Positions 19,446-37,567 of a stretch of DNA of 38,158 nucleotides are shown here, piece by piece. The stretch is taken from positions 1 through 38,158 of the forward strand of contig CAVDTI010000109.1 of NCBI GenBank assembly GCA_963611905.1, in the 5' to 3' direction. The stretch's first letter is position 1; each line of letters begins with the position of its first letter. A program made the translations under genes and the position numbers. Under the pieces are notes generated by a model. That model was given only the letters and a program-made list of their open reading frames with translations, made no database searches and was not told where the DNA came from. This DNA is from Faecalibacterium prausnitzii. Its GTDB lineage: Bacteria; Bacillota_I; Bacilli_A; RFN20; CAG-826.

Positions 19446-21524
19446 TTATTCAGCAGAAGAAGATGCGAAATAGAAGCCTCCAACCATGCCATCTCCGCCA
19501 GCAGTAATCTCGATTTTAACGGAAACGGTTTGATCAACGTAATCAACTAAATCATAAGTTACAACAGACCATCCGGCATTTGCAACAAGAGTGGTTCCAT
19601 CTAAAGTAGCTGGATCCCCTTCCGCAATCGTAGGCGTAACGGCAACATCATTTACAGTGAGAGAATATTTAGCGCCATTGCCATGACCACGCAAATCAAT
19701 CGTCCAGACTGTATTTGAAGAAACAACCTGAACCTCGTTAACAGATAACGAATCTGCGTTATTAACGTGGAAATCAAGGCCCTCATTCCTTACATCAAAA
19801 TTGCTTCTATGATAAGCGTAAACACCAGTTGGATTCTCTGCATATGCCGTCCAAGCATTTTTGGCGTTTTCATCATTCTTTGAAACAGATCCGATAAATT
19901 TACCTGTACTAGCTGTGGTTAATTTGTCATTTGCAAAGTAGAATCCGCCAACCATTGCGTCACCACCAGCAACTATCTCTACTTTAAGTGTTACTACTTG
20001 GCCAATATATGAATCAAGACCAAAAGAGATAGTCGTCCAGCCATCATTGACATGAACCTTGCCGTCTTCATCCACTGTCGCTTTCAACTCAGCGTCCTCA
20101 GCTTTTTGGCAAGCTGAAATAGTTGGAACGACCTTTGTCTCATCAACATAGAAATAGAATTGTGAATTACGATCTCCAAATGAGCGAAGATCGACTTTCC
20201 AGGTTGAAGAAGCGGAATCAACTGTCACTTTTGTAGAAACAAAGCCTTGATAATTTTCATGAAGTTTAAGGCCTTCACTAGCAACTGTAGCTTGATTTGA
20301 CCATTCATAAACGGATCCATCTTTATCAAGTTCCGATGTCCATGCTGTATTGGCAGCACCGTCATTTCCATATGTCGATCCAACAAACTTATCGCTATCA
20401 GCCGTTGTAACGTTAGATTTGAAGCTGACTTTGTTAACGCATGTTGATGAGTTTGTTAAGCCAACAAACCAGACCCATACTTTTTGTCCAACATAGGAAG
20501 ACAAGTCATATGAGAAGGTTAGATATTCATCAGACTGAATCGAAACTGTATCATTGCCGTTTGCATCCTCAAGAAGAGTTGCATTGACATATACTTGCAT
20601 TTTTGAGTCTTCGCCTCTGAAATTTCGAGCCGAAATTGTCATAGATGATGTAGCAGCCGTAATTTCTCTGGCTTGATAATGAGCTGCGCCATATTCAATG
20701 CCAACGCCTTCGGAATAAGTGCCGCGCTTCACCTCATCAGCAACATACCAATCAGGTAAGGCTCCATCAGTTAAAGAGTAATTGGCTCCTGTTTTGATAT
20801 CACTATCGGCAATACTCGCTACATAAGTTTTGGATTCACTCCAGTCGGAATCTTGATAACGTGGTGTGTCAGTAGAAGCTGTCGCCTGAACCTTATATTT
20901 AACAACCTTGCCATATTTCGATGGATCAACTGATGTGGCAGTCTTTCCGAGATCAAATTCACGTGCTCCACCTTGAATATCAAGCTTAATATTATCAGCT
21001 TTGCTATGGATATTTGTAAGAGACCCATCATCACCGATTACTGGTGTTGGAAGCTTGCTTACTGTCGCCGTAAATTTAACGACATTAGATGCAGGAGAAT
21101 CTAGATATGAACCACTACTATTCTTGGCAATTACAGAATATGAATGTTCATTAACATCTACGATTGCTAACTGGTAGGTCAATTCCGAGATTGTTGCTAT
21201 CTTGTTCGTGCCATCATACACTTCGTATTGATCAGCATTGCTAACAGCAACCCAGCTAAGCGTCTCTGTCTCTGTATCAATAGATAAAGTCGTAGCTGAC
21301 AAAGCGGTTTTTTCTTGTGATGATTCCGATTTAGATTCTGACTTGTCTGTTGATGATTGTGATTCTTTGCTAGACGAAGAACTAGACGAAGAAGTCGACT
21401 CTTTCTTTGATGAGGTCGAACTTTCAGATGATACTTCGCTAGAGGACGAGGAAGGGTGAGAATCGCTACAACCCGCCAAAAGTAATGACGAAGCTAGTAG
21501 CAGCAAAAGTTTTTTCGTTTTCAT
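19446..21524 (-). CDS. Surface lipoprotein: Ser-rich linker, FN3-like domain, three tandem beta-sandwich (CBM-like) modules
   Basis: 692 aa with lipobox LAGC and a roughly 50-aa Ser-rich spacer. An FN3-like segment (LSWVAVSNADQYEVY) is followed by three related modules that end VWVWFVGL..., VEIVAGGDAMVGGFYFA and IEITAGGDGMVGGFYFA. Confidence 0.85.
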   Translation of the reverse strand: MKTKKLLLLLASSLLLAGCSDSHPSSSSSEVSSESSTSSKKESTSSSSSSSSKESQSSTDKSESKSESSQEKTALSATTLSIDTETETLSWVAVSNADQYEVYDGTNKIATISELTYQLAIVDVNEHSYSVIAKNSSGSYLDSPASNVVKFTATVSKLPTPVIGDDGSLTNIHSKADNIKLDIQGGAREFDLGKTATSVDPSKYGKVVKYKVQATASTDTPRYQDSDWSESKTYVASIADSDIKTGANYSLTDGALPDWYVADEVKRGTYSEGVGIEYGAAHYQAREITAATSSMTISARNFRGEDSKMQVYVNATLLEDANGNDTVSIQSDEYLTFSYDLSSYVGQKVWVWFVGLTNSSTCVNKVSFKSNVTTADSDKFVGSTYGNDGAANTAWTSELDKDGSVYEWSNQATVASEGLKLHENYQGFVSTKVTVDSASSTWKVDLRSFGDRNSQFYFYVDETKVVPTISACQKAEDAELKATVDEDGKVHVNDGWTTISFGLDSYIGQVVTLKVEIVAGGDAMVGGFYFANDKLTTASTGKFIGSVSKNDENAKNAWTAYAENPTGVYAYHRSNFDVRNEGLDFHVNNADSLSVNEVQVVSSNTVWTIDLRGHGNGAKYSLTVNDVAVTPTIAEGDPATLDGTTLVANAGWSVVTYDLVDYVDQTVSVKIEITAGGDGMVGGFYFASSSAE

Positions 21525-21537
21525 AACTTTCCTTTCT

Positions 21538-21552
21538 AAAAAAACGGTTTCC
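21538..21552. promoter_or_regulatory. Partial copy of the locus palindrome (AAAAAAACGGTTTCC = GGAAACCGTTTTTTT)
   Basis: A 13-nt match to the 17-mer at 30953 and 33669. It lies just upstream of the SD of the 692-aa lipoprotein gene, in the divergent intergenic region. Confidence 0.45.
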
Positions 21553-21623
21553 TGATAATTTAATTATACAGCCAAAACAATAAAATGAAAGCCCTTTCTT
21601 TAAAAAGAGCAAGACAACTCTGC

Positions 21624-21652: not shown

Positions 21653-21658
21653 TTCGAT

Positions 21659-22510
21659 ATGTTAAAGCGAATGGGAAGCAATAAAGAAAATTCTAAAAAA
21701 GATCGTTTACCAGAAAACAGGAAAGATCAATTTTTATTGTTATTAAAGAATAACTATATGAAAATGGTTATTTTTTCGATGATTGCTTTCGTTTTTGTGA
21801 TACCTATCATAGTTTTATTCATCGTAATGAACTATCAAACATCTCTATTGTTACAAGAAGATGGAGCAAATAAAGGAAACGTTATTTTCTCTGCTTGTTT
21901 GTCCTTTTCCCTTTACGTTTTGCCTCTTATAGCCCTACTTGGTTTGGGTTTTGCAGGTTTATTTTCCATAATGAAAGGCTTTGTGTATAACGAACCGGTT
22001 TTTTATTCTTCGTTTTTTATAGGCATCAAAAAGAACTATAAGCAATTCTTGTTCATTGCATACTTTACCTATTTGTTTTTTGTTCTTTTCCTTTTGACTT
22101 TTGCACGTTTCTATTATTTTTCTATTGGTCCATCAATCCTAAGATATGCGTTGATATCCTTAAGCGCAATTGTCTTTTTTGTCGTTCTAATAATGGCACA
22201 ATATATGTGCACTGCAGCTGTTAGATATGAATCAAGCTTTAAACAATTGCTAGCCAATGCTTTCAAATTGGTTTTTCACAAATGTTATTTCAATCTTCTT
22301 ATAGCAGTTTTATCTGTCGCCCCATGGTTGATAGCCATCTTTTTTAACGTAATAATTCAAATGATCGTGTTTTTATTTATGTTCGTGTATTTGTTAAGCT
22401 TTTTTGCCCTATTACTGACCTCATACCACGCCTCGATATATGATGAGTTCGTCAACAAAGATAAATTTCCCTCAATATATCGAGCTGGATTAGAGAAAAA
22501 ATCAGATTAA
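21659..22510 (+). CDS. YesL-like (DUF624) polytopic membrane protein
   Basis: 283 aa, with 5-6 hydrophobic helices after a basic N-terminus. Its position next to a sugar ABC system is typical of YesL/DUF624. The assignment rests on resemblance only. Confidence 0.5.
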
Positions 22511-23995
22511 AGCAGTTCCATTCTCGTCATCCAAGAAAAGATGAATATTATCTTCATTGAAAGTAACAAATGCCTTATCGTGTGGATTGATTTTCGTCGT
22601 CGCTGGAGCTGTTATTGCTAATTGAGCGCCATTCAATAAACCATGAACAATGAATTGCGCACCAAGGAGCTCTACTATTGTCGTTTCAATCATTTGTCCT
22701 TTGTCATTGATCAATATGTCTTCTGGACGAATGCCAAGCGTTACCTCGAGGCTGCCTTTTTCAATTCTGTCCTTCAATGAAGAAATGTATTTATTTCGCT
22801 TTCCTAAAACTTCGTCGTTTTTAACCACCTCAACAACGTCGACCTTTTTCTTATTAATTCTCGTGGCCAAATTTGATTTTGTATAATAGTCAGTAATGTT
22901 ATCTTTTATAGTTAACGAATTTCTTTCGTAGTTTTCAACGAAAGATTTCAACTTTTCTTTTATCGTTTCGATTTGTTTTTTATCTAACTTAAAAGTGACA
23001 CCGCCAACATCGATATGACCATCGTTTATATTGTAGGTTGCATTAAGCAAATTCATTGCTGGACTTCCAATGAAGGTGGCAACAAAACGATTTGCTGGAT
23101 TACGATATATCTCCTCCGGCTTTCCTATTTGTTGAATGTAGCCCTTATTCATAACAATGATTTTATCCGCCATAGTCATCGCTTCGGTCTGATCATGTGT
23201 AACATAAATTGTAGTTGCTCCTATCTTTTCATGAAGATCAACTATTTCGCTTCTCATGGCGACACGAAGCTTAGCATCAAGATTGCTAAGCGGTTCATCC
23301 ATCAAGAAAAGCTTCGGGCTTCTTACTATAGCTCGCCCTAAGGCAACACGTTGTTGTTGACCACCAGAAAGAGATTTTGGCTTTTGGTTAAGAAATTGTT
23401 CAATATCGAGAACTTTGGCGGCGTTTTTAATACGTGCATCAATCTCATCTTTTGAATATTTGATGTTCTGGAAAGCTGGAATTGGATTTGATTTGACTTC
23501 AACTATTTTATCTTCAAAATCCTTAATCTCGTTTTTCAAAAATAAACGTTCGTCATCAGTTAAATTCTTTTTCTTTAAGCTTTTTGAAGCAATTTTGATT
23601 TGCTTCTCTAAATATTTGATTGTTTTAGAATCAATCACCATTTCCTGATTTCCATCCTTGTCAAGCTTAGGAACCTTGATTCTATGGTTCTTTAAACCAA
23701 AGGCCATATTCTCATAAACGGTCATGTGAGGATAGAGGGCGTAATTCTGAAAAACCATCGCAACATCACGATCTTGTGGTGAAACATTGTTAAACAAAAT
23801 GCCATCAACATAAAGTTCACCATCACTAATGCTTTCTAATCCTGCAATCATACGGAGCGTAGTACTTTTCCCGCATCCAGAAGGACCGACAAATACAACA
23901 AACTCCTTATCTTTTATGTCAAAAGAAAAATCATGAACGGCATGAAAACCATTGTCATAGATTTTATTAATATTTCGCAAGATGACATTTGCCAT
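22502..23995 (-). CDS. Sugar ABC transporter ATP-binding protein (MsmK/UgpC/MalK type) with a roughly 75-aa insertion
   Basis: 497 aa with Walker [11 protein letters not shown]-loop [10 protein letters not shown], signature LSGGQQQR, Walker [13 protein letters not shown] and a C-terminal MalK-like regulatory domain. A charged insertion lies between FGLK and the signature motif. Confidence 0.9.
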
Positions 23996-24032
23996 GATGG
24001 TATCTCCTTATTAGATTAGAAATTGCTGTTAT

Positions 24033-25445
24033 TTATGCATAAAGTTTGGCACTAAGCAAGACACAATGATTCACGTTTTTATTGATTGAAGCTAAAGTAA
24101 GCGTCACGGTTTTGCCTATGTAATTAGCAAAATCGTAAGTGTACGTGAAATGAGGATCCCCTACACCTGCTTCAACCGTAACATATTCGGTATCAACACC
24201 ATTTGCTTTGACAATATCTCCATCAACGCTAGTGGTAACCTTTGCCTTGTCCGTATCTTGATTTACAAACATACGCCAACTTACGCTGAAGTATCTTTTT
24301 TCGGTTGTTAAGGCGATTTTTATTGAAGCCTTACCGCTTCCGGCAAAATCTGGCCCCTCATTGATTGAATTAACCGAAGAAGTATACCAATCAGAGAAGA
24401 AAGCGGTCTTATTTTCCCATGCGACATTATCGCTTAAGCTGGCTCCTGCTTTTTCTAGCATCGCCACCGATGTTATGCAGCAATGCGTCGCAGCAGCTTC
24501 ATAGAACTTTATGAAGACGTTTTGTCCAACGTAATCTGATAAATCGTAGACAAAATCAACAGGAGAGTCGCTGCAAAGAGTAACATACTCTGTTTCGGAG
24601 TCATTCGCTTTAACAAGTGCTCCATCAATATAAACGTAAAATTTAGGATTTGTTTCGCCATCACGAACGAAATTTCTAATTGAAACCTTAAGGAATTTCG
24701 TCTCGTTTGTAATGCTATGATAAACAAAGGCTGTAGCTCCGGCCTTCATATCAAAGCCTTCCCCTACACCGGTGTCGTAATCACCAGTTCTTGTCCATTC
24801 TTCATATAAAGACTTGCGGTTCCAAGAGGTCGTGGTATTTAAAGTAATACCCTCAACATTTTTGTAGACAACAGTATTTGATAAAGGCGAAAGCTCATCG
24901 CCGCGTTTTGCTTGGACTTGAAGATTGTAGCCACCAACTTCGCTAAAAGAAAGCGTGTAAGAGGTTGTTTCAACATCAACAAGATATTCTCCATTACTAT
25001 ATATACAGTATTTCTCAGCACCAACAACTTCGTTCCAAGACAACGTTTTATCGCTTAAAGAAATGGTCGGAGCAAGGAGAGCTGCTGGTTTTTCGTAGGT
25101 GTAAGATACGGCGTTGCTCTTATCGCTATCCAAATAGACTCCATTTCTATCGATGGCTTGGATATAGTAAGAATAAGTGCCGCTTTCTTCCAATGATATC
25201 TCATAAGATAAAGTATTAAGATGGCCATATTTGATTTGACCATTTTCATAAAGCCTATACGACGTGGCGTTATCGATTTTTTCCCAACTAATTAAATTGT
25301 TTTCGATTTTAATCACTGGCGAAGCTAGTTTCTTAATGACCTCACTAGATGAAATATCCTGAGTTTTGCTAGAAGAAGCTGGTGTTGAGCATCCCACTAA
25401 AAGAAATAATGAGACTGGAAATAAAAGCAAGTTATTCTTTTTCAT
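24033..25445 (-). CDS. Surface lipoprotein: two FN3-like domains plus two beta-sandwich (CBM-like) modules
   Basis: 470 aa with lipobox LVGC. It has FN3-like repeats (LISWEKIDNATSYRLYENG, LSWNEVVGAEKYCIYSNG) and two modules carrying FVYDLSDYVGQNV and YTYDFANYIGKTV. Confidence 0.85.
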   Translation of the reverse strand: MKKNNLLLFPVSLFLLVGCSTPASSSKTQDISSSEVIKKLASPVIKIENNLISWEKIDNATSYRLYENGQIKYGHLNTLSYEISLEESGTYSYYIQAIDRNGVYLDSDKSNAVSYTYEKPAALLAPTISLSDKTLSWNEVVGAEKYCIYSNGEYLVDVETTSYTLSFSEVGGYNLQVQAKRGDELSPLSNTVVYKNVEGITLNTTTSWNRKSLYEEWTRTGDYDTGVGEGFDMKAGATAFVYHSITNETKFLKVSIRNFVRDGETNPKFYVYIDGALVKANDSETEYVTLCSDSPVDFVYDLSDYVGQNVFIKFYEAAATHCCITSVAMLEKAGASLSDNVAWENKTAFFSDWYTSSVNSINEGPDFAGSGKASIKIALTTEKRYFSVSWRMFVNQDTDKAKVTTSVDGDIVKANGVDTEYVTVEAGVGDPHFTYTYDFANYIGKTVTLTLASINKNVNHCVLLSAKLYA

Positions 25446-25457
25446 AGTTCATTCTCC

Positions 25458-27734
25458 TTATTCAATACTGATAGATTTGCATTTCACAATTTCGCCACTG
25501 CCTTCGCCGCTGTCATCGCTTTCAAAGACAAGCAATCCTTTTTTGCCATTTAAAGAATATGATGAGAGATCGAAGGTGAGAGTAACAAATTCTCCGCTTT
25601 GGAAGAGATAATATCCATATTTATCAATTTTGGATTTATCCCATTCATTTGCGACCAAATTAATGGAAGAAGCACCACGCTTATTGTTTGGATCCTCCAA
25701 ATAGAGCCTAACTCTCAAATTAACGTCTGATGAAGCGGAACCAGATTTAGCAACCATTGTTATCTTTTTCTCTGAACCATCCCAGTTTTTCATCGCATAA
25801 GCGTAGGCATTAGGAATGTAATCATCTCTATCATCAAGATCGGATCCGTCTAAATAAATACCGTCACTTGTGTATTTGGCGCTATCGTATTGGAGGCCAC
25901 CGCACCCAAGCGTCCAGTCAGTTTGTTCTCCAGTTGAGAAATCCCAACTCTTTTTATCTGTAACTGGCGTATCCTTAACATCGTTCCAATAGAATGGATC
26001 AGTCTCAATATCACATAATTCGCTATCTTTATAGGAGGCTGGGGTGTGATCAAGTACCTCCTCAACATCTTCATGTTTTACATTCTCCGTTATCAAATCG
26101 ATGAATTCGCCTGCATTGACAACCTCAACGTGGTCATCAAGTTGTTCGATAAAACGATTGATGTATTCCATCGTACCAATAGACCATGCGTGGCATACAA
26201 CAGCTGAATAAGCATCGATAGATGTAATATCGGTAGAACGATCGTTAATACGCTGAGCTACGCGTTCGGTATATCCATAATATTTGGCAACCGAAGATCC
26301 CGAAACTCTCCAAAGAGTATCACGGAAACAGACAAATGGCTTATCATTGCTCCAATGAACGCTTCCAGCACCAGCATCTCCTCCTTGGACGTAATAATCG
26401 CTAACACTCCAAAGACCGCCTTTAATGTTGTCGTATTGAGTGAAATAATCCAAATAATCAGAAGTTACATAATTATCAATAAAATTGAGAACGCTTAAAC
26501 CAGATTTTTCGCAATATCCAGCAGTTTTTGCAGCATAATCAGCCATGGCATTTGCGTTATAATCATTAACATTGACATAGCCAAATCCTGAAGGACCGCA
26601 GATGAAATCATCTTTTTCAGTGGCTTTATCATAAATGGATTCCATGACGTAAGGGGCTACATCGCTTAATGCAGGAGCCATCGTCCAGTTCATCTTGAAC
26701 TTCCCACGATACTTCGATCCATAATATTTACTATCAGTTTCAAAACCTCTTTGAAGCCATTGAACGTTATCACCATCTGACATAACAATAGTGACATAAT
26801 GTTTGCCTTTTTCGGCTTTAACCGTTGATTTAACACGATTGGCAGGCTCTAAATCTTTGTTTATATCTTCTGCTGCCATGAAGGAAAGATTACCACTCCA
26901 ATCTGAAGCAATTGTCACCATTGAATAATTGGAATTGTAGCCAACAAAATCTCCTTCAGATTCAGTCCAGCCAAAAACTGGGCAATTTGAGCACGTCCAT
27001 TCAGATATCTCTTTACGGAGTTCATCAGTGAGATATTCAACATACGTGCACAAAGCAACACCGCTAATGCCGTAATCTCTTAAAGGAAGAGATGTTGGAG
27101 ACTGGTTGATAAGATAGGTGTTGTTTAAATATTGCTTATAATTATGGAAAACTACTTCATCGCTCAAACTTGAAGCATCGGCACCAAGTTTAAAACCTGC
27201 CGCTAAACACTGACTGACAAGGCTATTTTCTACCATAATCCATTGCTCAACACCAGATATAGTGGCGGCTCGATTGATGGAGTTGTCATATCTGTCACCT
27301 TTGTCGGTGGAGGTATATGTCACGAACTTTTTATTCACAACGGCAGTTTTGAATTTATCAAGAAGCTCCCACGAATCATCGATTGAGGTAAGCGTAAAGC
27401 CAAGCTTCTTGCTCATCTCAGAGATTGTTTCATCTTTCTCACCCATTCCAGAGATGAAGATAGTTGCTTTTTCCTGAGCCAAAATCCCTTGCAAGGATTG
27501 GATCATCACGAATTCCGATGTAGTCATCGAACTTCTCGGAATCACATAACAAGTTGAAGCGTAACCATCAGGTTTATAAAAAGCTCCTTCTTTTATTTTC
27601 TCTACTGGCGCATCGTTATTTTTTGAGCTCGACGTATCGTCTTCTGCACCACTTTTGCTTGATGTTTCATTTGAAGCACACGAAGCAAGCATAGTGCCTA
27701 GTAGTAAGAGCAAAAAGGTAGTTTTCTTTTTCAT
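25458..27734 (-). CDS. Surface lipoprotein with a GxGYxYP-type putative glycoside hydrolase domain and a C-terminal beta-sandwich module
   Basis: 758 aa with lipobox LASC. The core HYVTIVMSDGDNVQWL...FICGPSGFGYVNV is paralogous to the 511-aa protein at 32099-33628. The C-terminal module carries TLTFDLSSYSLNG. Confidence 0.7.
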   Translation of the reverse strand: MKKKTTFLLLLLGTMLASCASNETSSKSGAEDDTSSSKNNDAPVEKIKEGAFYKPDGYASTCYVIPRSSMTTSEFVMIQSLQGILAQEKATIFISGMGEKDETISEMSKKLGFTLTSIDDSWELLDKFKTAVVNKKFVTYTSTDKGDRYDNSINRAATISGVEQWIMVENSLVSQCLAAGFKLGADASSLSDEVVFHNYKQYLNNTYLINQSPTSLPLRDYGISGVALCTYVEYLTDELRKEISEWTCSNCPVFGWTESEGDFVGYNSNYSMVTIASDWSGNLSFMAAEDINKDLEPANRVKSTVKAEKGKHYVTIVMSDGDNVQWLQRGFETDSKYYGSKYRGKFKMNWTMAPALSDVAPYVMESIYDKATEKDDFICGPSGFGYVNVNDYNANAMADYAAKTAGYCEKSGLSVLNFIDNYVTSDYLDYFTQYDNIKGGLWSVSDYYVQGGDAGAGSVHWSNDKPFVCFRDTLWRVSGSSVAKYYGYTERVAQRINDRSTDITSIDAYSAVVCHAWSIGTMEYINRFIEQLDDHVEVVNAGEFIDLITENVKHEDVEEVLDHTPASYKDSELCDIETDPFYWNDVKDTPVTDKKSWDFSTGEQTDWTLGCGGLQYDSAKYTSDGIYLDGSDLDDRDDYIPNAYAYAMKNWDGSEKKITMVAKSGSASSDVNLRVRLYLEDPNNKRGASSINLVANEWDKSKIDKYGYYLFQSGEFVTLTFDLSSYSLNGKKGLLVFESDDSGEGSGEIVKCKSISIE

Positions 27735-27746
27735 TTTGTTTTCCTC

Positions 27747-28646
27747 CTATTTGATGCCTGAAAAATTCAAACCGCCGACAAATTTCTTTTGACAGCAAAA
27801 ATAAACAACCAAAACCGGAATGAGAGAAATGATTAAAGAAGCGGCTTTGTATACCGTTTCTCCCCAATCGCTCGAACCGGCGAAATTATAAAGTTTGAGT
27901 TGAATTGTAAACATACTACTGTCACCAGTGATAAGCATTGGCCAAAGATAGTCGTTCCACTGAGCAACAAAATTAAGTACAACGTATGTTGATATTACAG
28001 GAAAGCAAAGAGGTAAGACGATGTGGAAGAGGGTTTTTAACTCGTTCGCACCATCCAATTTGGCACTTTCTAAACAAGCGTCTGGAATTGAATCCATAAA
28101 GGCTTTTACCAAGAATATTCCTGTTACATTTACAATGCCTGGCAAAATCAGACCAGCGTATGAGCTTGTCCATCCTAAAGAAGAGACAAGTTGATAGTTG
28201 GTTACCATAAGTATTTCTCCTGGCACCATCATGGTAATAAGCAAACACCAAACAACGACGTTTTTTCCTTTGAATTTCTTTTTTGCCAAGACATAGCCCA
28301 TAAGAAGAATTATTACCGAAGAAAGAAGAATAAAGCCAAAAGCAACAATCAATGTATTTTTGATGCCTTCTAACAATTCGCCTTCAACAAAAGCCTCGGC
28401 ATAGTTTGCAAAGCATAATTCAACAGGGAAAAAGTAGATTTTGCCATATTCTGGATAAAAACCTTCGACTGGTTGAAGTGAAGTAACAAACTGGAGATAA
28501 AAAGGGAAAACTTGAGCAAAGGCGATTATAGAAAGAACTACAATTATGACAATCGTCACAATCGTGCTGCTGACCTTATCTTTCTTTATTTTCTCTTTTG
28601 CCTCTCTATTGGCGATTTTTATTTGAAGTTCCTTATTATCAATCAT
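27747..28646 (-). CDS. Carbohydrate ABC transporter permease (MalG/UgpE type)
   Basis: 299 aa, 6 TM, with the EAA loop ESAKLDGANELKTLFHIVLPL. Confidence 0.9.
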   Translation of the reverse strand: MIDNKELQIKIANREAKEKIKKDKVSSTIVTIVIIVVLSIIAFAQVFPFYLQFVTSLQPVEGFYPEYGKIYFFPVELCFANYAEAFVEGELLEGIKNTLIVAFGFILLSSVIILLMGYVLAKKKFKGKNVVVWCLLITMMVPGEILMVTNYQLVSSLGWTSSYAGLILPGIVNVTGIFLVKAFMDSIPDACLESAKLDGANELKTLFHIVLPLCFPVISTYVVLNFVAQWNDYLWPMLITGDSSMFTIQLKLYNFAGSSDWGETVYKAASLIISLIPVLVVYFCCQKKFVGGLNFSGIK

Positions 28647-28648
28647 AA

Positions 28649-29617
28649 TTAAAATCCCTTATTGTTGCCTGAAGCTTTTCTTTGCAGTATTGAGAAACAA
28701 ACGATGATAATCGTTGTTATTACACCAATAGCGCAAGCATAGGCCATTTCATTATTGAGAATGTTCTGATAGAGATATAAAACTACCGTTATCGTAGCGT
28801 TATCAGGACCCCCAGCAATGAGTGGGTTATCAGCTATAAGTTGCATAGGGCCCATAATACGAACTCCCGAAATAATGGATAAAATTACATTGTAATTAAT
28901 GGCTTTCATTATAGATGGGACGTAGATATTCTTAAAAATTGATATGCCCCTTGCTCCATCGATTTTTGCAGCCTCAATTTGATTTTGATCAACGCCTTTA
29001 AGAGCAACATAATAAATGACAAGTTGAGATGAAAATCCAAGTAAAAGTGGCATGATCATCAAAGTTATAAGAGCTAAAGATTTATCGTTGTACCATGCTA
29101 ATTTATCTCCGCCAAAAGCCATAATGATTTGATTCATAAGACCACTATCTGAAGGAGAGAAAATTTGCTTCGTTATCTCAGTCGAGGCCACGGATGACAC
29201 CAATGTCGGCCAAAAAAGTAACGTTAAGAATAGTTTTTGTCCTCTTTTCATTTTTGTGATGAGATAGGCAAAAAGCAAACCGAGCACATTATTGGCAATG
29301 GTCATAGAAACCGTCCAAATGAAAGTATTCTTCAAAGAGGCCAAAAAAGTCTCATCATGGAAAAGACGTACATAATTATCAAAAGTGAAGAAAACACTAA
29401 TATCACTAACGTCTAATGTTAAATCGGTGAAAGAGAAATATATCGCTCTCACAAAAGCATAGACAAAGAAAATCCCCCACCATAGCATCGGAAAAAGAAT
29501 CATCAAGTACGATGTTTTGTCCTCACGGGAGAAAAATCTTTTTTTCTTCAGCAAAGCATTTCTATCGATATCTCGATAATTTAAATCATAGACGATGGAG
29601 AGATCTTTCTTTTTCAT
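28649..29617 (-). CDS. Carbohydrate ABC transporter permease (MalF/UgpA type)
   Basis: 322 aa, 6 TM, with the EAA loop EAAKIDGARGISIFKNIYVP. Confidence 0.9.
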   Translation of the reverse strand: MKKKDLSIVYDLNYRDIDRNALLKKKRFFSREDKTSYLMILFPMLWWGIFFVYAFVRAIYFSFTDLTLDVSDISVFFTFDNYVRLFHDETFLASLKNTFIWTVSMTIANNVLGLLFAYLITKMKRGQKLFLTLLFWPTLVSSVASTEITKQIFSPSDSGLMNQIIMAFGGDKLAWYNDKSLALITLMIMPLLLGFSSQLVIYYVALKGVDQNQIEAAKIDGARGISIFKNIYVPSIMKAINYNVILSIISGVRIMGPMQLIADNPLIAGGPDNATITVVLYLYQNILNNEMAYACAIGVITTIIIVCFSILQRKASGNNKGF

Positions 29618-30883
29618 TTATTTGTCCAATTTACGGTCAGTTTCATTTTGGCATTCTTCTTGGCAAGAAGCGATCGCTTGCGCGATAGTTTCTTCGCTAG
29701 AAGCTGTTACGCATTTATAAAGCATTGTTACAAGTTTCTTCTCCATGAAAGGCCAAATTGGCGTCGCTGGACGAGGAGTAACGTGCTCTAATTGCGAAGC
29801 ATAGATAGATAAGTATTTATCGCCAGTGTAATAGGCGTCGCCAAGAGCTTCCTTTGTTACAGGAAATAAACTGCCGGCTTTAGCAAAATTCAATTGGCTA
29901 TCTTTATCAGTGCAAAGATATTTAGCAAACTTGTAAGCCTCATTAACACAAGAGGATTTTTGCGCAACCGCAAGAGAATAAAGACCCAAGCCAGAATATC
30001 CTGTTCCGCCATCTTTAAGAGGAAGCATCTCACTAATACCTAACTCAACAGCGTTATAATTGATCTTACTAAGATTCCAAGAGCCCATCTCAATAAAGGC
30101 GCATTTGCCATTATAAAATTTGCCTTCCTCGTATTCATTCTGCGAAGCAAATTTGGATAACTTTATCCATTCATTAATTGCAGCCTTAACCTCTGTGGAG
30201 TCAATCTTGATGGTTTTGCAATCATCCGACACTAAGCTACCACCCAAACGTGAGACATAACTCACGAATTCCATTGCGGAGAAAGTTGAATTGATTGGCT
30301 GAGCAAAAGCAACTTCTGAACTTTCACAACTATTTTTTATTTTTGTAAGATCAGCAAGGAATTCATTATATGTTGTTGGTGCTGTATTAATGCCATATTT
30401 TTTGAGCATTGTCATATTGTACATAAGGGCAACCGTATTAGCGGACATCGGAAGAGCATACGCTTTCCCCAAATATGAATTCGCGTTATAGATGTTTTCT
30501 GGGACCAAAGTTTTAACCTCTTCATCCGCACCAAGCGAAGAAAGATCGGCAAGCTGTCCCTCATTAGCAAGAGATTGAACGTATACGTGATCAATAATTG
30601 CAATATCTGGGCGTGATTTGTTGTCATTTAGGGCAACTTGATAAGCTTGATAAAGATCAAGTCCAGATTTCTTTACGATTTTTATTGTGCAATTTGGATT
30701 TTCCGCCTCAAATTTCTCCTTGGCGTTTTGGAGAACTTTCAAGTAATCCGTATTTGATGGCCACCAAACGGTGATGGTCTTATTCTCGGATCCGCCACTT
30801 TCGTCTCCTGTTTTATGATTACAACTAGCCAATGTTGATGAAAGTAATAACGGAAGGATGAATAATTTGAATTTGTTCTTCAT
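29618..30883 (-). CDS. Carbohydrate ABC transporter substrate-binding lipoprotein
   Basis: 421 aa with lipobox LASC. Its layout is that of a family-1 extracellular solute-binding protein. It is the first gene of a six-gene minus-strand operon (30883 down to 22502). Confidence 0.85.
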   Translation of the reverse strand: MKNKFKLFILPLLLSSTLASCNHKTGDESGGSENKTITVWWPSNTDYLKVLQNAKEKFEAENPNCTIKIVKKSGLDLYQAYQVALNDNKSRPDIAIIDHVYVQSLANEGQLADLSSLGADEEVKTLVPENIYNANSYLGKAYALPMSANTVALMYNMTMLKKYGINTAPTTYNEFLADLTKIKNSCESSEVAFAQPINSTFSAMEFVSYVSRLGGSLVSDDCKTIKIDSTEVKAAINEWIKLSKFASQNEYEEGKFYNGKCAFIEMGSWNLSKINYNAVELGISEMLPLKDGGTGYSGLGLYSLAVAQKSSCVNEAYKFAKYLCTDKDSQLNFAKAGSLFPVTKEALGDAYYTGDKYLSIYASQLEHVTPRPATPIWPFMEKKLVTMLYKCVTASSEETIAQAIASCQEECQNETDRKLDK

Positions 30884-30952: not shown

Positions 30953-30969
30953 AAAAAAACCGTTTTTTT
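30953..30969. promoter_or_regulatory. Candidate LacI-family operator AAAAAAACCGTTTTTTT (odd palindrome)
   Basis: Perfect AAAAAAC-C-GTTTTTT symmetry between a candidate promoter (minus strand TTGTTT-N17-TATATA, 30993-31021) and the SBP gene. The same 17-mer occurs at 33669-33685. Confidence 0.5.
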
Positions 30970-31067
30970 GTAAGGGCTTACTTAAAAGTGCTTATATACG
31001 GTTTAGAAAAACTAAAAACAAGAGTTTTTTAATCAATTTGTTTGACGGCAAAATCATTCATGAATAT

Positions 31068-31095
31068 ATAAAGAAAAGCTCAGTTAGACTGAGCT
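31068..31095 (-). terminator. Rho-independent terminator after the LacI-family gene
   Basis: The minus strand reads AGCTCAG-TCTAA-CTGAGCT followed by TTTCTTT. Confidence 0.7.
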
Positions 31096-31113
31096 AGATA
31101 TATCTTTTATGTA

Positions 31114-32112
31114 TTATTCTTCAAATTTGAACGAATCGTTAATGTGCAACTTGCTTCTGATGAGCACATTATTAGGAGAGCCATCATTCATAATTTCTCT
31201 AAGTTGAATGGAGGCTTGAAGAGCTAATTGGTCATAATCCTGTTCAGCATAAGACAAAGAAACATCAAAAGAATCTAGGTCTTTTTTTGATGAACCTAAA
31301 GCAAAAACAAACACGTCTTTGCCGACAACAAGATTTTTGCTTTTAATTGCTTGATAAACGCCTTTTGCAATAATAGATGAGCCGACAATAAATGCGTTAT
31401 AACCCTTTTCCAAGGATAGCGATGCATGGTAAAAGCCTTCTTCCACAGAGGAATTTTCAGTGTAAAAAGAAGCGTGTAAAAGGGGATTTTTCTCATTAAT
31501 TGCTTTATTGAAACCTTTTTCACGATCTTTTGAGATCGTTAGGGATTTATTAGAATTGATAAGGCATATCTTATCTCCGCCATTATCAATCATTTTGCCA
31601 GCAATATACTCACATAAAGCCTCGTTATCAGTGTCCACGCATGTTATTTTATCTGAATCGGTAGAACCAATAACAACGAAGGGTATGGAATTAAGTTCCA
31701 TTTCTGAAATACGTGTATCCATAAGAGTTGGTCCAACTAAAATTGCTCCATCAATTGGAGATTGACCTTTCTTCAATTTATCCGCTACTTCTTTCTCTTC
31801 TGGCCCAAAATAGAGCAAGACATCTACATCATAATCGCTCCAATAAGTAACGATCGTGCGAATAACATCATTATAGAAAGTATGGTATCTTCTTGTTGAG
31901 GTTTCCAAGAATATGCCAATTATATTTGTCTTTATATCATTGACATTTCCCAAAACCGAAGCGTAAAAGTTAGGAGAATAGTTAAATTCTTTGCAGACTT
32001 TGAGTACTTTTTCTCTGATTGGCTCAGAAACGTATCTTTTGCCTGATAGAACATTACTTACTGTAGACTTTGCTACACCCGCTTTTTCCGCAATATCATT
32101 AATTGAAGCCAT
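31114..32112 (-). CDS. LacI-family transcriptional regulator
   Basis: 332 aa with the N-terminal HTH INDIAEKAGVAKSTVSNVLSG and a periplasmic-binding-protein-like sugar-sensing domain. It overlaps the upstream gene by 14 nt. Confidence 0.9.
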   Translation of the reverse strand: MASINDIAEKAGVAKSTVSNVLSGKRYVSEPIREKVLKVCKEFNYSPNFYASVLGNVNDIKTNIIGIFLETSTRRYHTFYNDVIRTIVTYWSDYDVDVLLYFGPEEKEVADKLKKGQSPIDGAILVGPTLMDTRISEMELNSIPFVVIGSTDSDKITCVDTDNEALCEYIAGKMIDNGGDKICLINSNKSLTISKDREKGFNKAINEKNPLLHASFYTENSSVEEGFYHASLSLEKGYNAFIVGSSIIAKGVYQAIKSKNLVVGKDVFVFALGSSKKDLDSFDVSLSYAEQDYDQLALQASIQLREIMNDGSPNNVLIRSKLHINDSFKFEE

Positions 32113-33628
32113 TCATCGTTTCCTCTGTATTAGATTTTATGTTTTTTCTCATCAAAGAAATCAATTGCTCAATTCCTAAGATTTGTACATTTTCATCTAA
32201 TAGTTTAACCAATTTATCTAGGTCATCACAAGTGGTAGACCAAGGATGAACGTTTATGACGCTATAACCATCCTCGCTATGAGGTGCTATAGGCAATGAG
32301 TTTATCAAAGCTGCTAGCCTTAGAATTAATTGGTCTTTGTTTGTCTTTTCCTCTTCTTTGCTCTCAAAAATATTCCAAAGGGAGGCTTTTACTGAAATAA
32401 ATGGTTTATCATCGATCCAGAATATTTTCCCTTTTCCGCCTTCATATTTAATCGGATCTATCTCATATACACCGCCTATTATGTTCTGATGCTTAGCATA
32501 AGTTGATAAAACGAAATTAACATTTTCTTCATTCATATCCTTAAGATTGTCCAGAAGCATAACAACATTAATCCCCATCAAAGAGAGATATTCACTCGTT
32601 TTTTTTGTATAAAAAGGCAAGTGTTCTTTAGGGAAAACGCAAGGATTCATATATCCGTATCCCGAAACTCCACAAATGAAATCCTCATTAGTGGCATGAT
32701 CATAAATATATTCAAGGCATTTTGGATTTAAGTCGATAAGCGCTGGACTTACTGACATTGTTAAAGGATAGTTCCTCTTTACTGTTGCAAAATTTTTATA
32801 AAAAGAACAGAAACAAAATTCTCTTTCAAGCCATTGAATATTGTCTCCATCACTAACTACAAACGAGACATAATGCTTATTCGGTTTAATCTCTTCGACA
32901 TGCTTTTTTCTTTCAACTTTTTTTGGTGAAAAAGTTCCGAAAAATGAATGATTCGAGCTCCAATCCATCGGAATAATAGCATCGCCGTACTTAGATATCT
33001 GGCTAACAAAAGAGATTTCATCACTCGTCCATCCGTATATACATATGCCTTTGTCTAAATAAGAAAGAACTTCATCCAAGAAACGCCTTTGTTCTTCGCT
33101 TTCATCAACATAAAGAACAAACCATTTATTCGTTATAGAAAAATCGAGTAATGAGATAAGGAAATTATCATCACTTCTCGCAATAGGCTGATGAATTAAG
33201 CCGTTTTTGGCCAATTTATCTCTATATTTATCAAAGGCGTATTTTTGAATTTCTAAATTATCTAGCCCAAGTTTAGTTAGATCCTCAAGCAATAAGAGTT
33301 TTTCTTTTACAAGATATTCTAGAGTATCAGGGACAGCTAAAGCGCCAGTAGCAGCTGCAATAGAAAAAGCAGCATTGATCTCGGTAGATTTTGAATCCAA
33401 GTGATATAAAACATAATGGGACAAAGACGACATGAACATATTAACAACGCTCATGAAGTCAACCGAGTCAAGCTCATATTTGGATCTATCTATATATTCA
33501 AGATAATGATCCACATCTAGAAGCAAGGTTTGTTCTTTTTTGTTCACTAAACCTTGTAAACACGTAAAGAAGGCAAGTTCTTCGTAAGTGAGTTTATTTC
33601 TGCTCACATAAAATATCTGTTTTTTCAT
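32099..33628 (-). CDS. Cytoplasmic GxGYxYP-type putative glycoside hydrolase (paralog of the 25458-27734 core)
   Basis: No signal peptide. HYVSFVVSDGDNIQWL...FICGVSGYGYMNP aligns by eye with the lipoprotein paralog. The ATG at 33628 (MKKQIF) is preferred over the TTG at 33634. Confidence 0.7.
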   Translation of the reverse strand: MKKQIFYVSRNKLTYEELAFFTCLQGLVNKKEQTLLLDVDHYLEYIDRSKYELDSVDFMSVVNMFMSSLSHYVLYHLDSKSTEINAAFSIAAATGALAVPDTLEYLVKEKLLLLEDLTKLGLDNLEIQKYAFDKYRDKLAKNGLIHQPIARSDDNFLISLLDFSITNKWFVLYVDESEEQRRFLDEVLSYLDKGICIYGWTSDEISFVSQISKYGDAIIPMDWSSNHSFFGTFSPKKVERKKHVEEIKPNKHYVSFVVSDGDNIQWLEREFCFCSFYKNFATVKRNYPLTMSVSPALIDLNPKCLEYIYDHATNEDFICGVSGYGYMNPCVFPKEHLPFYTKKTSEYLSLMGINVVMLLDNLKDMNEENVNFVLSTYAKHQNIIGGVYEIDPIKYEGGKGKIFWIDDKPFISVKASLWNIFESKEEEKTNKDQLILRLAALINSLPIAPHSEDGYSVINVHPWSTTCDDLDKLVKLLDENVQILGIEQLISLMRKNIKSNTEETMNGFN

Positions 33629-33636
33629 ATGCAAAC

Positions 33637-33646
33637 ATCATACCAC
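33637..33646 (-). promoter_or_regulatory. Extended -10 promoter element TGGTATGAT eight nt upstream of the ATG
   Basis: The minus strand reads GTGGTATGAT-gtttgcat-ATG with no SD, which implies a leaderless or near-leaderless mRNA. Confidence 0.4.
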
Positions 33647-33668
33647 AATTTATTTTTTAAGAAAAACA

Positions 33669-33685
33669 AAAAAAACCGTTTTTTT
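33669..33685. promoter_or_regulatory. Candidate LacI-family operator AAAAAAACCGTTTTTTT in the divergent control region
   Basis: Identical to the 17-mer at 30953-30969. It lies between the divergent GxGYxYP-lacI and GH38-HAD transcription units and overlaps a candidate -35 (TTATTT-N17-TAGAAT) for GH38. Confidence 0.5.
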
Positions 33686-33735
33686 ATTTCCATTTTTATG
33701 CAACAATAGAATAAAAGAAATTGAGGCATCTTAAA

Positions 33736-36582
33736 ATGAAAAAAACAATTCATCTTATTAGCGGTACTCATTGGGATAGAGAATGGAGACACACAGCCGA
33801 ACAAAGCAAACTCCGTTTAGCCGACCTAATGGACCACATCATCGACATCTTGGAAAATAAACCATCCTACGAATGTTTCTGCGTAGACGGAGGAACGATC
33901 GTTTTAGAAGATTATTTCACCGTCAGGCCAGAAAATAGAGAGCGTGTACAGAAGCTCATAAAAGACGGAAAAATGATCATTGTCAATTGGTATACTCTAC
34001 CAGAAACAAACACGGTCGCGCCAGAAAGCATGATCCGTAACCTTTTAACAGGAAGAAGAATGGGCAAAGAATTTGGTGGAGCAATGAAATCCGGTTACAC
34101 CGCCACTTCTTATGGCCAGCCAAGCCAGCTTCCACAACTTTATCAAGGATTCGGAATTGAAAACGCTATTTTCTATCGCGGAACGAACAAACATTTCTTA
34201 ACCCCACTATTCAAATGGTCGGCACCAGATGGAAGTTCCATATTTACTTTACGTACCTTTGATGAAGTGACTAGAACGAATTGGTTTTTCTATGTCCATG
34301 GTCCAGCAGTTTTAGGGAAGGGATTGAAAGATCTTTCGTATAAATACAATAAGAATGAAGCCCCAGTTCACATGGTCGATATGGGTTCTTATGAAAAAGC
34401 ATTCGTTGCCACAAAAGAAAACGAAGATTATATCCATGACGAAAAAGTATTGAAACGTTCATTGGATTACCTTCTGAACCAAGCAGAACCATACGCCATC
34501 GGAAATAACATTCTCGCTCTCAACATGGAGGATAATGATGAGCCATATCGATACCTTCCTGAACTTATTGCGGATATGAACAAAATTTATCCTGACTACG
34601 AAATCAAACAGGAAAGATTGGATGACTATATGAAAGTCATCATGGATTTGGCTAAAAATGGTGAATATAAGTATGAAAGTTATGTAGGAGAACTCCGTAA
34701 TACCACTTTCTCCCCAGATGATTTCAACGCTTTATTGGGAGCAACGCATTCTTCCCGTATAAATATTAAATTAATGAACGAAGAATGCGAAAATGGCCTT
34801 ATCAATTTAGCTGAACCTTTGACAAGTGCTTCATACCTTCTTGGTGGAGAATATCCCGCAACAAACATCGAACACGCTTGGCACACATTACTTAAATGCC
34901 ACGCCCATGATAGTATTTGCGGAGCAGCTGTCGATAGAGCACACACAGACATGAATTACTCCTTCTCCGTCACAAAAACGGTAGCCGAAGAAGTAACAAA
35001 CCGCGCTTGTGTAAGTCTTTATCAAAAAATAGATACCAAGACTAATTTCCAAAACGATGACTATCCAATTGTCATCTTTAATACGTTGCCTTTCGAAAGA
35101 GAAGAAGTTATTGAACTCGTTATCGACACTCCAAAAGATTCCGTAAAAATGATAGATAACGGCATGGGCGCACCTGTACCAGCCGCAACTTTCTTCGATA
35201 TAGTCGATGACAAAGGCAATGTTGTTGAAAGCAAAGAACTAAGTTCAGAGAGTGCTCTAGTAGCCATTGAAAAACAAACGGATACCAAAGCTATAAAATT
35301 TGAAACCATCAGGAGACACATTTTAGTCAAAGCAAAAGTCCCAGCAAATGGGTATGCAACCTATGCCCTCCGTATGAGATTGGCCAATTTAGCCTTTGAT
35401 CCACAAATTATCGACAACCGCAAACTTATCGCTAGAAGTAACGGCGTTTTGGAAAACGAATACCTTAAAGTCGTGATTAACCCAAACGGAACATTTGATA
35501 TGCTCGACAAAGCAACAAATAGATGGATGAGAAATCAAGGATACTATACCGACGCAGGTGAGGTTGGCAGCGCTCATGAACACGCTGAGCCAAAGGTCAA
35601 CAAAACTTACACTTCATTTGGTTGCAACGCAGATATTGAAATGATTGAAGGAAACAATCTCTTAAGAGGAGTCTATCGAATTGCGTTAACAATGAATATT
35701 CCTGCAGAAGCATCCTTAGATGCCCATGAACGAGTATCGGAATTGAAACCTCTACGTATCGAAACATACCTGACCCTTGAAAAGGGTGCAAAAGCACTTA
35801 AAGTTAAAACAACCCTTATTAACGAATCAAGAGATCACAAGCTTTGCGTCCATTATCCAACAGCGATCTCCAATGCCGATTGGTGCTATGCCGAATCAGC
35901 TTGGGATGTTGCAAAAAGAACAATTAAGTGGCGTGATCATAAAGACAATAAGGAAGATTTCTATTCATTCCAACCTATGCAAAATTTTGTCGACGTAAGC
36001 GATGGTAAATTAGGATACGCCTTCCTTTCGAAAGGCCTTAGAGAATACGAAGTCGAAGATGATGAAAATCGTACCTTGAAAATCACTTTAATCCGTACGC
36101 AAAGAGCCTATATGACAGCCAACAGCAAAATGACAGTTGCTGAAACTCATAAATATACAGGCCAACATTGCCTAGGCACTTTAACTTATGAATACGCTTT
36201 ATACCCACATACTGGCTTATGGAACGAAGGCAATGTATTTGAACAAGCCTACGCAAATAAAGTAAATATGAAAGCCATAATGGGCGTTCCGACCGAGGGA
36301 AAACTTCCATCAACATCATCGTTTATTAATGTAACTGGTGGCGATGGGGCCATTGTCTCAGGCGCATTCAAATTAGCGGAAAACGGCAAGGATATCATCT
36401 ACCGTATATGGAATAACTCTGGCGAAAGCAAGAGCCTTAACATTTCAACTGTCTTCGATTTAAAGGGAGTCAAAGAAGTCAAACTCGATGAGACTCCAAT
36501 CAAAGACATTGAATTAAATGGAAATAGTTTTGCTTATGAGCTTAAACCTCATAAAATTGCAACGTTCTTATTGGTGAAATAA
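33736..36582 (+). CDS. Glycoside hydrolase family 38 alpha-mannosidase (MngB-like, cytoplasmic)
   Basis: About 948 aa with the N-terminal metal-site motif HLISGTHWDREWR and no signal peptide. The ATG at 33736 has a GAGG SD; the track start at 33721 is TTG. Confidence 0.85.
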   Translation: MKKTIHLISGTHWDREWRHTAEQSKLRLADLMDHIIDILENKPSYECFCVDGGTIVLEDYFTVRPENRERVQKLIKDGKMIIVNWYTLPETNTVAPESMIRNLLTGRRMGKEFGGAMKSGYTATSYGQPSQLPQLYQGFGIENAIFYRGTNKHFLTPLFKWSAPDGSSIFTLRTFDEVTRTNWFFYVHGPAVLGKGLKDLSYKYNKNEAPVHMVDMGSYEKAFVATKENEDYIHDEKVLKRSLDYLLNQAEPYAIGNNILALNMEDNDEPYRYLPELIADMNKIYPDYEIKQERLDDYMKVIMDLAKNGEYKYESYVGELRNTTFSPDDFNALLGATHSSRINIKLMNEECENGLINLAEPLTSASYLLGGEYPATNIEHAWHTLLKCHAHDSICGAAVDRAHTDMNYSFSVTKTVAEEVTNRACVSLYQKIDTKTNFQNDDYPIVIFNTLPFEREEVIELVIDTPKDSVKMIDNGMGAPVPAATFFDIVDDKGNVVESKELSSESALVAIEKQTDTKAIKFETIRRHILVKAKVPANGYATYALRMRLANLAFDPQIIDNRKLIARSNGVLENEYLKVVINPNGTFDMLDKATNRWMRNQGYYTDAGEVGSAHEHAEPKVNKTYTSFGCNADIEMIEGNNLLRGVYRIALTMNIPAEASLDAHERVSELKPLRIETYLTLEKGAKALKVKTTLINESRDHKLCVHYPTAISNADWCYAESAWDVAKRTIKWRDHKDNKEDFYSFQPMQNFVDVSDGKLGYAFLSKGLREYEVEDDENRTLKITLIRTQRAYMTANSKMTVAETHKYTGQHCLGTLTYEYALYPHTGLWNEGNVFEQAYANKVNMKAIMGVPTEGKLPSTSSFINVTGGDGAIVSGAFKLAENGKDIIYRIWNNSGESKSLNISTVFDLKGVKEVKLDETPIKDIELNGNSFAYELKPHKIATFLLVK

Positions 36583-36583
36583 T

Positions 36584-37567
36584 ATGGTTGAAATCACAAA
36601 CATCGGATCATTTTCCGAAAAAGATGGTTTAATCAAACTAGACGCCACATCCGACGATAAATTCCATGTAGGCGTTAATGGCGTCAAATCAATCGTGTCC
36701 ACAGGCGACAGAAAAGTTGAATTCATCTCTTTCTCTGATCACTGTTTGGCCTTCGTGAAGTCTTCAATTGGTTATAACGCCTATTATCCAATCAATAAGG
36801 TATCGATCAAACGTCCGATAAAGGCGGTTCTAATGGATTTAGATGGAACCTCGGTAAAAAGTGAAGAATTCTGGATTTGGATCATCGAAAAATCTATTTC
36901 TTCATTGATGAATGATCCGTCTTTCAAATTAGACGAAAGCGATTTGCCTCATGTTTCAGGCCATAGCGTTTCTGAACATCTTCAATACTGCATAAACAAA
37001 TATTGCCCAGATAAAAAGCTTGAAGACGCACGTGCTTATTATTTTCAACATACCGAATTCGAAATGAATGAAATAATGGAGGGAAGAGGAAAGGAAGGAG
37101 CATTTACGCCAGCAAAAGGCATAAAGGAATTCTTACTAGCTTTGAAGGAAAGGAATATCAAAATAGGCCTGGTTACATCAGGTTTGTATCAAAAGGCTTG
37201 GCCAGAAATCTTATCCGCTTTTAAAACCCTTAATATGGGGGACCCTAAAGATTTTTATGACGCAATAATTTCTGCTGGTTATCCCCTCAAGAAAGGAAGC
37301 GTAGGAACACTTGGAGAGTTATCGCCAAAACCACATCCATGGTTATACGCTGAAACTTGCACTGTGGGCCTTAACATTCCTTTTGAAGATCGCAATTCCG
37401 TAGTTGGCATAGAGGATAGCGGAGCTGGCGTATGCTCAATTCGCTTAGCTGGTTATCCAACAATCGGCATTTCAGGAGGAAATATAGAATCCAGCGGAAC
37501 TAAATCATTGTGCGATTTTTATGCTGACGATTTTTCATCGATTTTGAAATATATAGATGGAAAATAA
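36584..37567 (+). CDS. HAD-IA superfamily hydrolase (phosphatase or beta-phosphoglucomutase-like) with an unassigned roughly 80-aa N-terminal domain
   Basis: Motif I is LMDLDGT (aa 83-89), motif II is GLVTSG, and motif IV is IEDSGAG. The start lies 1 nt after the GH38 stop. Confidence 0.8.
   Translation: MVEITNIGSFSEKDGLIKLDATSDDKFHVGVNGVKSIVSTGDRKVEFISFSDHCLAFVKSSIGYNAYYPINKVSIKRPIKAVLMDLDGTSVKSEEFWIWIIEKSISSLMNDPSFKLDESDLPHVSGHSVSEHLQYCINKYCPDKKLEDARAYYFQHTEFEMNEIMEGRGKEGAFTPAKGIKEFLLALKERNIKIGLVTSGLYQKAWPEILSAFKTLNMGDPKDFYDAIISAGYPLKKGSVGTLGELSPKPHPWLYAETCTVGLNIPFEDRNSVVGIEDSGAGVCSIRLAGYPTIGISGGNIESSGTKSLCDFYADDFSSILKYIDGK

Follow-up and report, generated by a model that had tools for sequence, protein, structure and literature searches.

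A CpG-centred A-tract/T-tract palindrome as the probable operator of a LacI-family regulator at a GH38 and GxGYxYP locus of a small-genome gut bacterium

Local sugar repressors of the LacI/GalR family with CG-centred operators, such as PurR on the purF operator, CcpA on the catabolite-responsive element (cre) and RbsR, represent a very well known type of gene switch in which an HTH_LacI domain is joined to an effector domain (RegPrecise regulogs, PMC4052901). Their sites are typically found 30-140 nt upstream of start codons, and five ManR orthologous groups are listed for utilisation of mannose or mannosides (PMC4052901). In the published rules relating amino acids to bases, L54 inserts into the central CG of the operator, residue 15 reads operator position 5 and residue 16 position 4, and R20 pairs with G at operator position 6, and lacO1 is described as having an intervening base between its half-sites (PMC2978694). 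Here we discuss a locus in a contig of 38,158 nt (CAVDTI010000109.1 of assembly GCA_963611905.1), which we refer to as the window. It comes from an assembly of 1,263,027 bases in 127 contigs that is 69% complete with a GC content of 36.8%. The locus includes a LacI-family gene and three copies of a short palindrome, O1, O2 and O3, and we think it quite probable, from comparison of sequences, that these are operators of the LacI-family protein, centred on a CpG step and most likely serving to repress four transcription units. As a system type this is an ordinary, textbook gene switch, within which the regulator and its motif constitute a new orthologous group.

The regulator has the HTH_LacI domain at residues 3-48 (PF00356, 61 bits against a cut-off of 27) and a C-terminal periplasmic-binding-protein-like effector domain matched by PF13377 and PF00532. 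With residue numbering anchored on TVSR as residues 17-20 (PMC2978694), the recognition helix is K15-S16-T-V-S-N20 and the hinge includes A51 and L54, both of which are invariant in seven LacI orthologs by direct numbering and alignment. The protein is under the cut-off of every one of the named NCBIfam equivalogs, and the best solved relative is CcpA, at only E = 1.7e-23. The A51 and L54 hinge and a 16-bp operator with central CpG are shared with the known CG-centred LacI/GalR systems. In contrast the helix here is KSTVSN where xxTVSR is dominant in those systems, and positions 3-6 of the half-site are all A, with no G at position 6 and, in this genus, with homopolymer arms. The pairing of N20 with A at position 6 fits the published rules (PMC2978694).

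Both O1 and O2 are exact copies of the 17-mer AAAAAAACCGTTTTTTT, as reported in the preliminary description of the window, and both are intergenic. O1 is between the stop codon of lacI and the start codon of the gene for a solute-binding protein (SBP), while O2 is in the divergent region between the GxGYxYP-lacI and GH38-HAD units. The third site that had been reported, at 21538, is also present, with AAAAAAACGGTTTCCT on the plus strand and a single mismatch at position +6, and all three control regions of the locus do indeed carry the motif. The centre of O1 is 78 nt upstream of the SBP start codon, and for the centre of O2 the distance is about 49 nt to the ATG of GxGYxYP and about 58 nt to that of GH38. 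O3 adjoins the ribosome-binding site of the 692-aa lipoprotein-like gene on its upstream side, and the 283-aa gene, which is divergent, starts 113 nt away from it. In all, the site centres are 22-114 nt upstream of start codons, which overlaps the typical range for LacI sites (PMC4052901), O3 at 22 nt from the lipoprotein start being the only one under 30 nt. The GxGYxYP gene is the first of the GxGYxYP-lacI unit and has O2 in front of it, and lacI is thus probably autoregulated. Autoregulation together with control of adjacent divergent and downstream sugar operons, as we propose here, and mostly usual site positions are features of local LacI/GalR repressors, as are palindromic operators of 16-22 bp with a central CG and sites before the own operon and adjacent operons that are conserved across orthologs, and these last two are found at this locus.

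The motif is close to unique in this genome. The 13-mer core AAAAACCGTTTTT is found at two places only, O1 and O2, in the whole assembly, other words of the form A5-NNN-T5 having 0-5 occurrences each, and the chance expectation for the 17-mer, estimated from base composition, is about 0.002 per assembly. A scoring matrix trained solely on sites of other lineages was applied to the 41,713 CpG-centred 16-mers of the genome: O1 and O2 rank first and second with 21.2 bits each, and O3 is about 8th with 16.4 bits. Two weaker matches that had been put forward with these sites are at background level by this measure, namely the half-match AAACCGTAT near 30996-31004 (-9.2 bits) and GAAACGGTTG at 17910-17919 (-2.9 bits). 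The two other LacI-family genes of this genome are on contigs C98 and C10 and have the helices LATVSR and SAAVSY, and there is no such site on either of these contigs.

There is one site elsewhere in the genome that scores as high as O1 and O2. It is TAAAAACCGGTTTTCT at 5998-6013 of contig C94 (L085), with 21.1 bits. Downstream of it, at a distance of about 290 nt, are a sugar transferase gene, a ManC-like mannose-1-phosphate guanylyltransferase gene and a phosphomannomutase-like gene. It could be a distal, mannose-related member of the regulon. The ManC-like gene has no counterpart among the seven genomes holding the regulator.

Phylogenetic footprinting of the locus gives a similar picture. 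In the two closest orthologous loci, L003 of genome G233 and L004 of genome G001, LacI is 84-86% identical to that of the window, and the motif is an invariant island in the alignments of all three intergenic regions. O3 is kept in these two genomes, as GAAAAAACGGTTTTTC and AAAAAACCGTTTTTTT, and in the SBP-side copy of L003 the centre base is flipped, giving CCG for CGG, with the arms intact. A search of the order with the GxGYxYP and LacI proteins gave five more syntenic genomes (G072, G117, G357, G397 and G053). For G072 and G117, with about 41% identity for LacI, 63% for GH38 and 69% for HAD, the exact 16-mer AGAAAAACGATTTTCT is present twice in each genome, in the GH38/GxGYxYP divergent region and in the gap between lacI and the next operon. 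G357, G397 and G053 have AGAAAAACGGTTTTTT, TAGAAAACCGTTTTTCA, GCAAAAACCGTTTTTCT and GGAAAATCGGTTTTCT at the corresponding places. A scan of metagenome contigs, based on an alignment of seven orthologs and with G[VI]AKSTVSN as search peptide, gave 45 loci, in which exact AAAAnCGnTTTT is found between lacI and SBP and in the GH38/GxGYxYP intergenic region, at one to three copies each. Its 49 matches in 22 kb of sequence outside open reading frames compare with 35 in 300 kb within them.

The motif also goes with the regulator. The regulators associated with it, from 8 genomes and about 40 metagenome contigs, have 36-86% identity and the GVAKSTVSN helix in every case, and this helix, A51 and L54 are common to all of the orthologs and paralogs that have the motif. 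Even where this helix belongs to a paralog in a different context (L058, L063, L081), there is a site immediately upstream. Among 41 relatives the ortholog is found only in G000 and G001, and no other relative has the 15-mer AAAAAACSGTTTTTT in two copies; the single copy in one other relative is at the level of the reversed-pattern control. For RAAAAHCGDTTTTY all genome-wide matches are within the locus in the nearly complete G117 and G357, as are two of three in G072, three of four in G233 and three of six in G001. The presence of the same motif in the same regions wherever an ortholog with the same helix occurs, its near-uniqueness and its co-occurrence with the regulator are a strong indication that the motif is the operator of the local LacI protein, as was suggested in the preliminary description.

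The family consensus is the 16-mer A-R-AAAA-H-CG-D-TTTT-Y-T (ARAAAAHCGDTTTTYT), which is symmetric about the CpG step. It is based on 63 unique sites, all CpG-centred, and the half-site from position 8 to position 1 is A, G/A, A, A, A, A, A/C/T, C. We suggest that this CpG-centred 16-mer is the functional site, and that a LacI homodimer would bind to each copy with its recognition helices (K15, S16 ... N20) reading the A-tract and T-tract arms and its hinge-helix leucines L54 inserted into the central CpG. Without its sugar effector the protein would most likely repress the GH38-HAD unit, the GxGYxYP-lacI unit (autoregulation), the SBP operon for an ATP-binding cassette (ABC) transporter and the 692-aa lipoprotein gene, and an effector, probably a mannose-containing sugar, would bring about release. 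The cre-like boxes beside O1 and near O3 may provide a second layer of control.

Some observations have to be set against this interpretation. A conserved TTGnnT-17-TAAACT match (TTGCGT-17-TAAACT in the window) lies directly downstream of O1, and if this is the promoter O1 would lie upstream of it, at about -54 to -38, in a non-classical position for a repressor. There is an extended -10 box, TGGTATGAT, with a conserved TGTGnTA, 8 nt before the GxGYxYP ATG 33628 and 26 nt downstream of O2, which would put O2 at about -55 to -40 for the GxGYxYP-lacI unit. The centre of the sites has a strong asymmetry that is not predicted by a simple symmetric dimer model, and the sites share phylogeny, so that counts of sites overstate their independence.

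The promoter positions raise the possibility that LacI serves as an activator, or has a dual function, at the promoters of the SBP and GxGYxYP-lacI units, with a site at about -55 to -38 that would function as for a class I activator or a UP element. The two conserved promoter-like matches just described are as expected for this, and there is a similar spacing of 28 nt in G072. However we consider it unlikely that LacI is an activator. Repression is the likeliest mode given three arrangements, each of them a repressor position: O3 is between the TGTATAAT box on the minus strand and the ribosome-binding site, there is a TATAAT box 6-8 nt upstream of the transporter-operon operator in G072 and G357, and in G053 and G397 the site directly adjoins the ribosome-binding site. 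The ATTATACA stretch of the TGTATAAT box is common to the window and G233, with G001 gapped or unreadable there. In addition, a sigma-70 consensus scan reported none of the promoter-like matches in the O1 and O2 regions, and for the O3 region its sole report was the promoter match of the 283-aa gene itself. The great majority of local LacI-family sugar regulators act as repressors.

On the GH38 side, O2 overlaps the -35 region whichever of the candidate GH38 promoters is taken. O1 had been described as downstream of a candidate SBP promoter, which corresponds to a TTGTTT-17-TATATA match, but this placement is not upheld, as the match is not conserved in the two orthologous loci and was not reported by the consensus scan. 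For the 283-aa gene there is a TTAACA-17-TATAAT match that ends 6 nt before the ATG (21624-21661). The start codons very near to -10 boxes, in this case and for GxGYxYP (33626-33645), suggest leaderless or near-leaderless mRNAs.

With regard to register, the 17-mer of the window, read as it stands, is an odd palindrome centred on C-G-G, and has to be compared with the E. coli LacI operator O1, with its GCGG centre, and with the odd motifs of LacR, GalR and EbgR. In lacO1 it is the single central base about which the outer positions of the half-sites are symmetric, and in the present family it is the CpG step. The preliminary description had drawn attention to the odd single-base centre, and this is real as sequence but probably does not mark the binding dyad. 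For the comparison of registers, so as not to give the even register an advantage, sites were picked solely for having the odd core AAAACGGTTTT, which gave 44 unique sites. The odd-register form of the site is AAAAAAAC-S-GTTTTTTT, and O1 and O2 with the centre base deleted become AAAAAAACGTTTTTTT. All 44 sites have A at distance 6 on the CpG-side arm and only 29 have it on the other arm, and the information in four flank positions is 4.08 bits in the CpG register as against 2.54 bits in the odd register. When 60 unique sites were classified (the half-site counts in the CpG register use all 63), 20 could be read in the even register only and none in the odd register only. As all 44 odd-core sites have the extra A of the even register, the odd centre is probably not the binding dyad, and the window has a 17-nt odd palindrome because this genus has A/T at -7/+7 and A/G at -2/+2. 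The binding dyad is most probably the CpG step, as in solved LacI-family complexes.

A genuinely odd geometry like that of lacO1, with half-sites AAAAAAAC about a single C/G pair and one domain displaced by 1 bp, nevertheless has points in its favour. The sites O1 and O2 are perfect 8+1+8 palindromes, L003 has retained the arms around its flipped centre base, and AAAAC-S-GTTTT is found in 43 of the 63 family sites while the plain even palindrome AAAAACGTTTTT is found in none. Odd operators do occur, for about 4% of LacI-family factors (PMC4052901) and in the natural lacO1 (PMC2978694). We regard such a geometry as doubtful for this family, as half-sites symmetric about a single base pair are not what is observed: the arms are unequal about the single base because of the obligatory CpG-side A, the flank positions with R and A can be lined up in no register but that of the CpG, and the 20 sites that cannot be read as odd include all four of G072 and G117. 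The divergent-region site of L004, AAAAAAACGGTTTTCT, is an exact fit to the even consensus and has two mismatches to the odd one.

The asymmetry of the centre is a separate matter. Apart from the 43 sites with A-CG-G there are 11 with C-CG-A, 7 with A-CG-A and 2 with C-CG-G among the 63 unique sites, and A-CG-T is not found at all, when independent halves would predict, from the half-site frequencies, about 23 A/C, 10 A/A and 13 C/C pairs. The A-CG-T palindrome is common by chance in these AT-rich genomes, yet never among the sites, and AAAAACGTTTTT is present four times in this genome but in no case near the locus. The bias is seen in nearly all of the approximately 17 lineages counted, for which site numbers are not independent. 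We offer as a tentative suggestion that the operator centre is obligately asymmetric, one half-site ending in AC and the other in CC, with binding of the homodimer, which has a small residue at position 55, being intrinsically asymmetric. If this is so, the outer contacts would remain equidistant from the CpG, unlike the lacO1 solution, and the perfect 17-nt odd palindrome found in this genus would show the asymmetry at its most extreme.

It is highly improbable that the motif is other than a LacI site, be it an A/T-rich promoter feature (curved DNA or a UP element) or a site for a different factor, for example CcpA, since the presence of A-tract and T-tract near promoters and of a cre-like box adjoining O1 has to be set against an invariant CpG, absence of the motif both from relatives without the regulator and from this genome's other promoters, distances to start codons that vary by lineage, lack of the TG and CA positions of cre, canonical cre-like sites that form a separate genome-wide set, and a leader without RNA structure. 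In the case of cre (WTGNAANCGNWNNCW), TG and CA are at positions 6-7 of each half, where the 17-mer has A. A promoter UP element, for which one would expect an A/T-rich tract fixed at about -40 to -60, without a specific CpG and present at many strong promoters, was rejected on the invariant CpG, the confinement of the motif to the locus and its position, which varies, being next to the ribosome-binding site at one extreme and upstream of the -35 box at the other. An attenuator or riboswitch was also rejected, as the leader folds no better than shuffled sequences (z = +0.40) and the window is without an Rfam match.

The cre-like box that abuts O1, AGTAAGCCCTTACA, is probably a CcpA site. There is a second, TGAAAGCCCTTTCT, at 21586-21599 near O3, and both have a GCCC centre where GCGC is canonical, each being conserved in those genomes that can be read there. 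In other lineages there are AAGCGCTT boxes at the same place (L016 about 16520-16560; L032 about 9230-9250). Genome-wide there are about 8 WGWAAGCCCTTWCW sites, beside many canonical cre sites.

Coordinates of the sites and genes are given in Table 1.

Table 1. Features of the locus, with positions in the window
Feature	Position	Strand	Basis and remarks
O1, AAAAAAACCGTTTTTTT	30953..30969	.	Exact match; CpG 30961-30962; 16-bp register 30954-30969
O2, AAAAAAACCGTTTTTTT, identical 17-mer	33669..33685	.	GH38/GxGYxYP-lacI divergent region
O3, AAAAAAACGGTTTCCT	21538..21553	.	Plus-strand reading; single mismatch
cre-like box, AGTAAGCCCTTACA	30969..30982	-	Abuts O1; conserved block in L003/L004 alignment; C for central G
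Terminator-like hairpin	31077..31095	-	3' of lacI; parts lacI unit from SBP operon
LacI-family regulator, 332 aa	31114..32112	-	Pfam, translation, ortholog alignment
GxGYxYP-family protein	32099..33634	-	PF14323; likely start ATG 33628
GH38 alpha-mannosidase	33721-36582	+	Pfam; likely ATG 33736; syntenic in all related loci
HAD-family hydrolase	36584-37567	+	Pfam; synteny as for GH38; GH38-HAD unit 33721..37567, divergent from O2
SBP	29618-30883	-	Pfam; start codon at 30883
Transporter operon	22502..30883	-	SBP, two permeases, 758-aa GxGYxYP protein, 470-aa protein, MalK-like ATPase; Pfam, synteny
MalK-like ATPase	22502-23995	-	Pfam
692-aa lipoprotein-like gene	19446..21524	-	ATG 21524; behind O3
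283-aa gene	21659-22510	+	Divergent from 692-aa lipoprotein gene

The GH38 protein has an NCBIfam match to mannosylglycerate hydrolase that is under the cut-off of that model. In its family and gene context the regulator is like ManR, being a local LacI-family regulator beside genes for mannoside catabolism, and differs in that the set here is of GH38, GxGYxYP proteins and an ABC importer, and in that the host is a gut bacterium with a small genome and low GC.

The number of operators per region varies among the loci. There are three in the GH38/GxGYxYP divergent region of L056, at 1504, 1558 and 1633 with spacings of 54 and 75 bp, and likewise in L057 and L062. On the SBP side L056 (5085 and 5149) and L062 have a pair of operators 64 bp apart, and L057 a pair 109 bp apart. 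The window is unlike these in having a single operator per region. In one lineage exact CGAAAAACGATTTTGC is found inside the SBP coding sequence (L054 at 2153, L055 at 2011, L056 at 5758 and L061 at 5758), and this could be an internal operator or due to chance. In G397, of the same genus, contig C6 (L029/L030) has three LacI paralogs with an (A/T)KST(V/I)SN helix, and the GH38/GxGYxYP divergent region of this genome has GGAAACCGGTTCG in place of the A-tract motif.

In GenBank the two related assemblies, those of L003 and L004, have the titles 'Bacteroidaceae bacterium' and 'Prevotella sp. CAG:755'. In gene content they do not resemble Bacteroidota, with genomes of 1.0-1.6 Mb, SBP-type ABC sugar importers, cre sites and 37% GC, and the titles may be wrong.

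The analysis provides a testable regulon for an uncultured, small-genome gut lineage. If the regulon is as we propose, one sugar signal would tie together the uncharacterised GxGYxYP proteins, GH38, the HAD hydrolase, the ABC importer and surface lipoproteins, and this would narrow the search for the substrate of the GxGYxYP proteins. For the LacI family, K15-S16 with N20 in place of R20 and an all-A half-site would be a recognition class that extends the published amino-acid-to-base rules, and the pairing of N20 with the all-A half-site could serve as an orthogonal repressor-operator pair.

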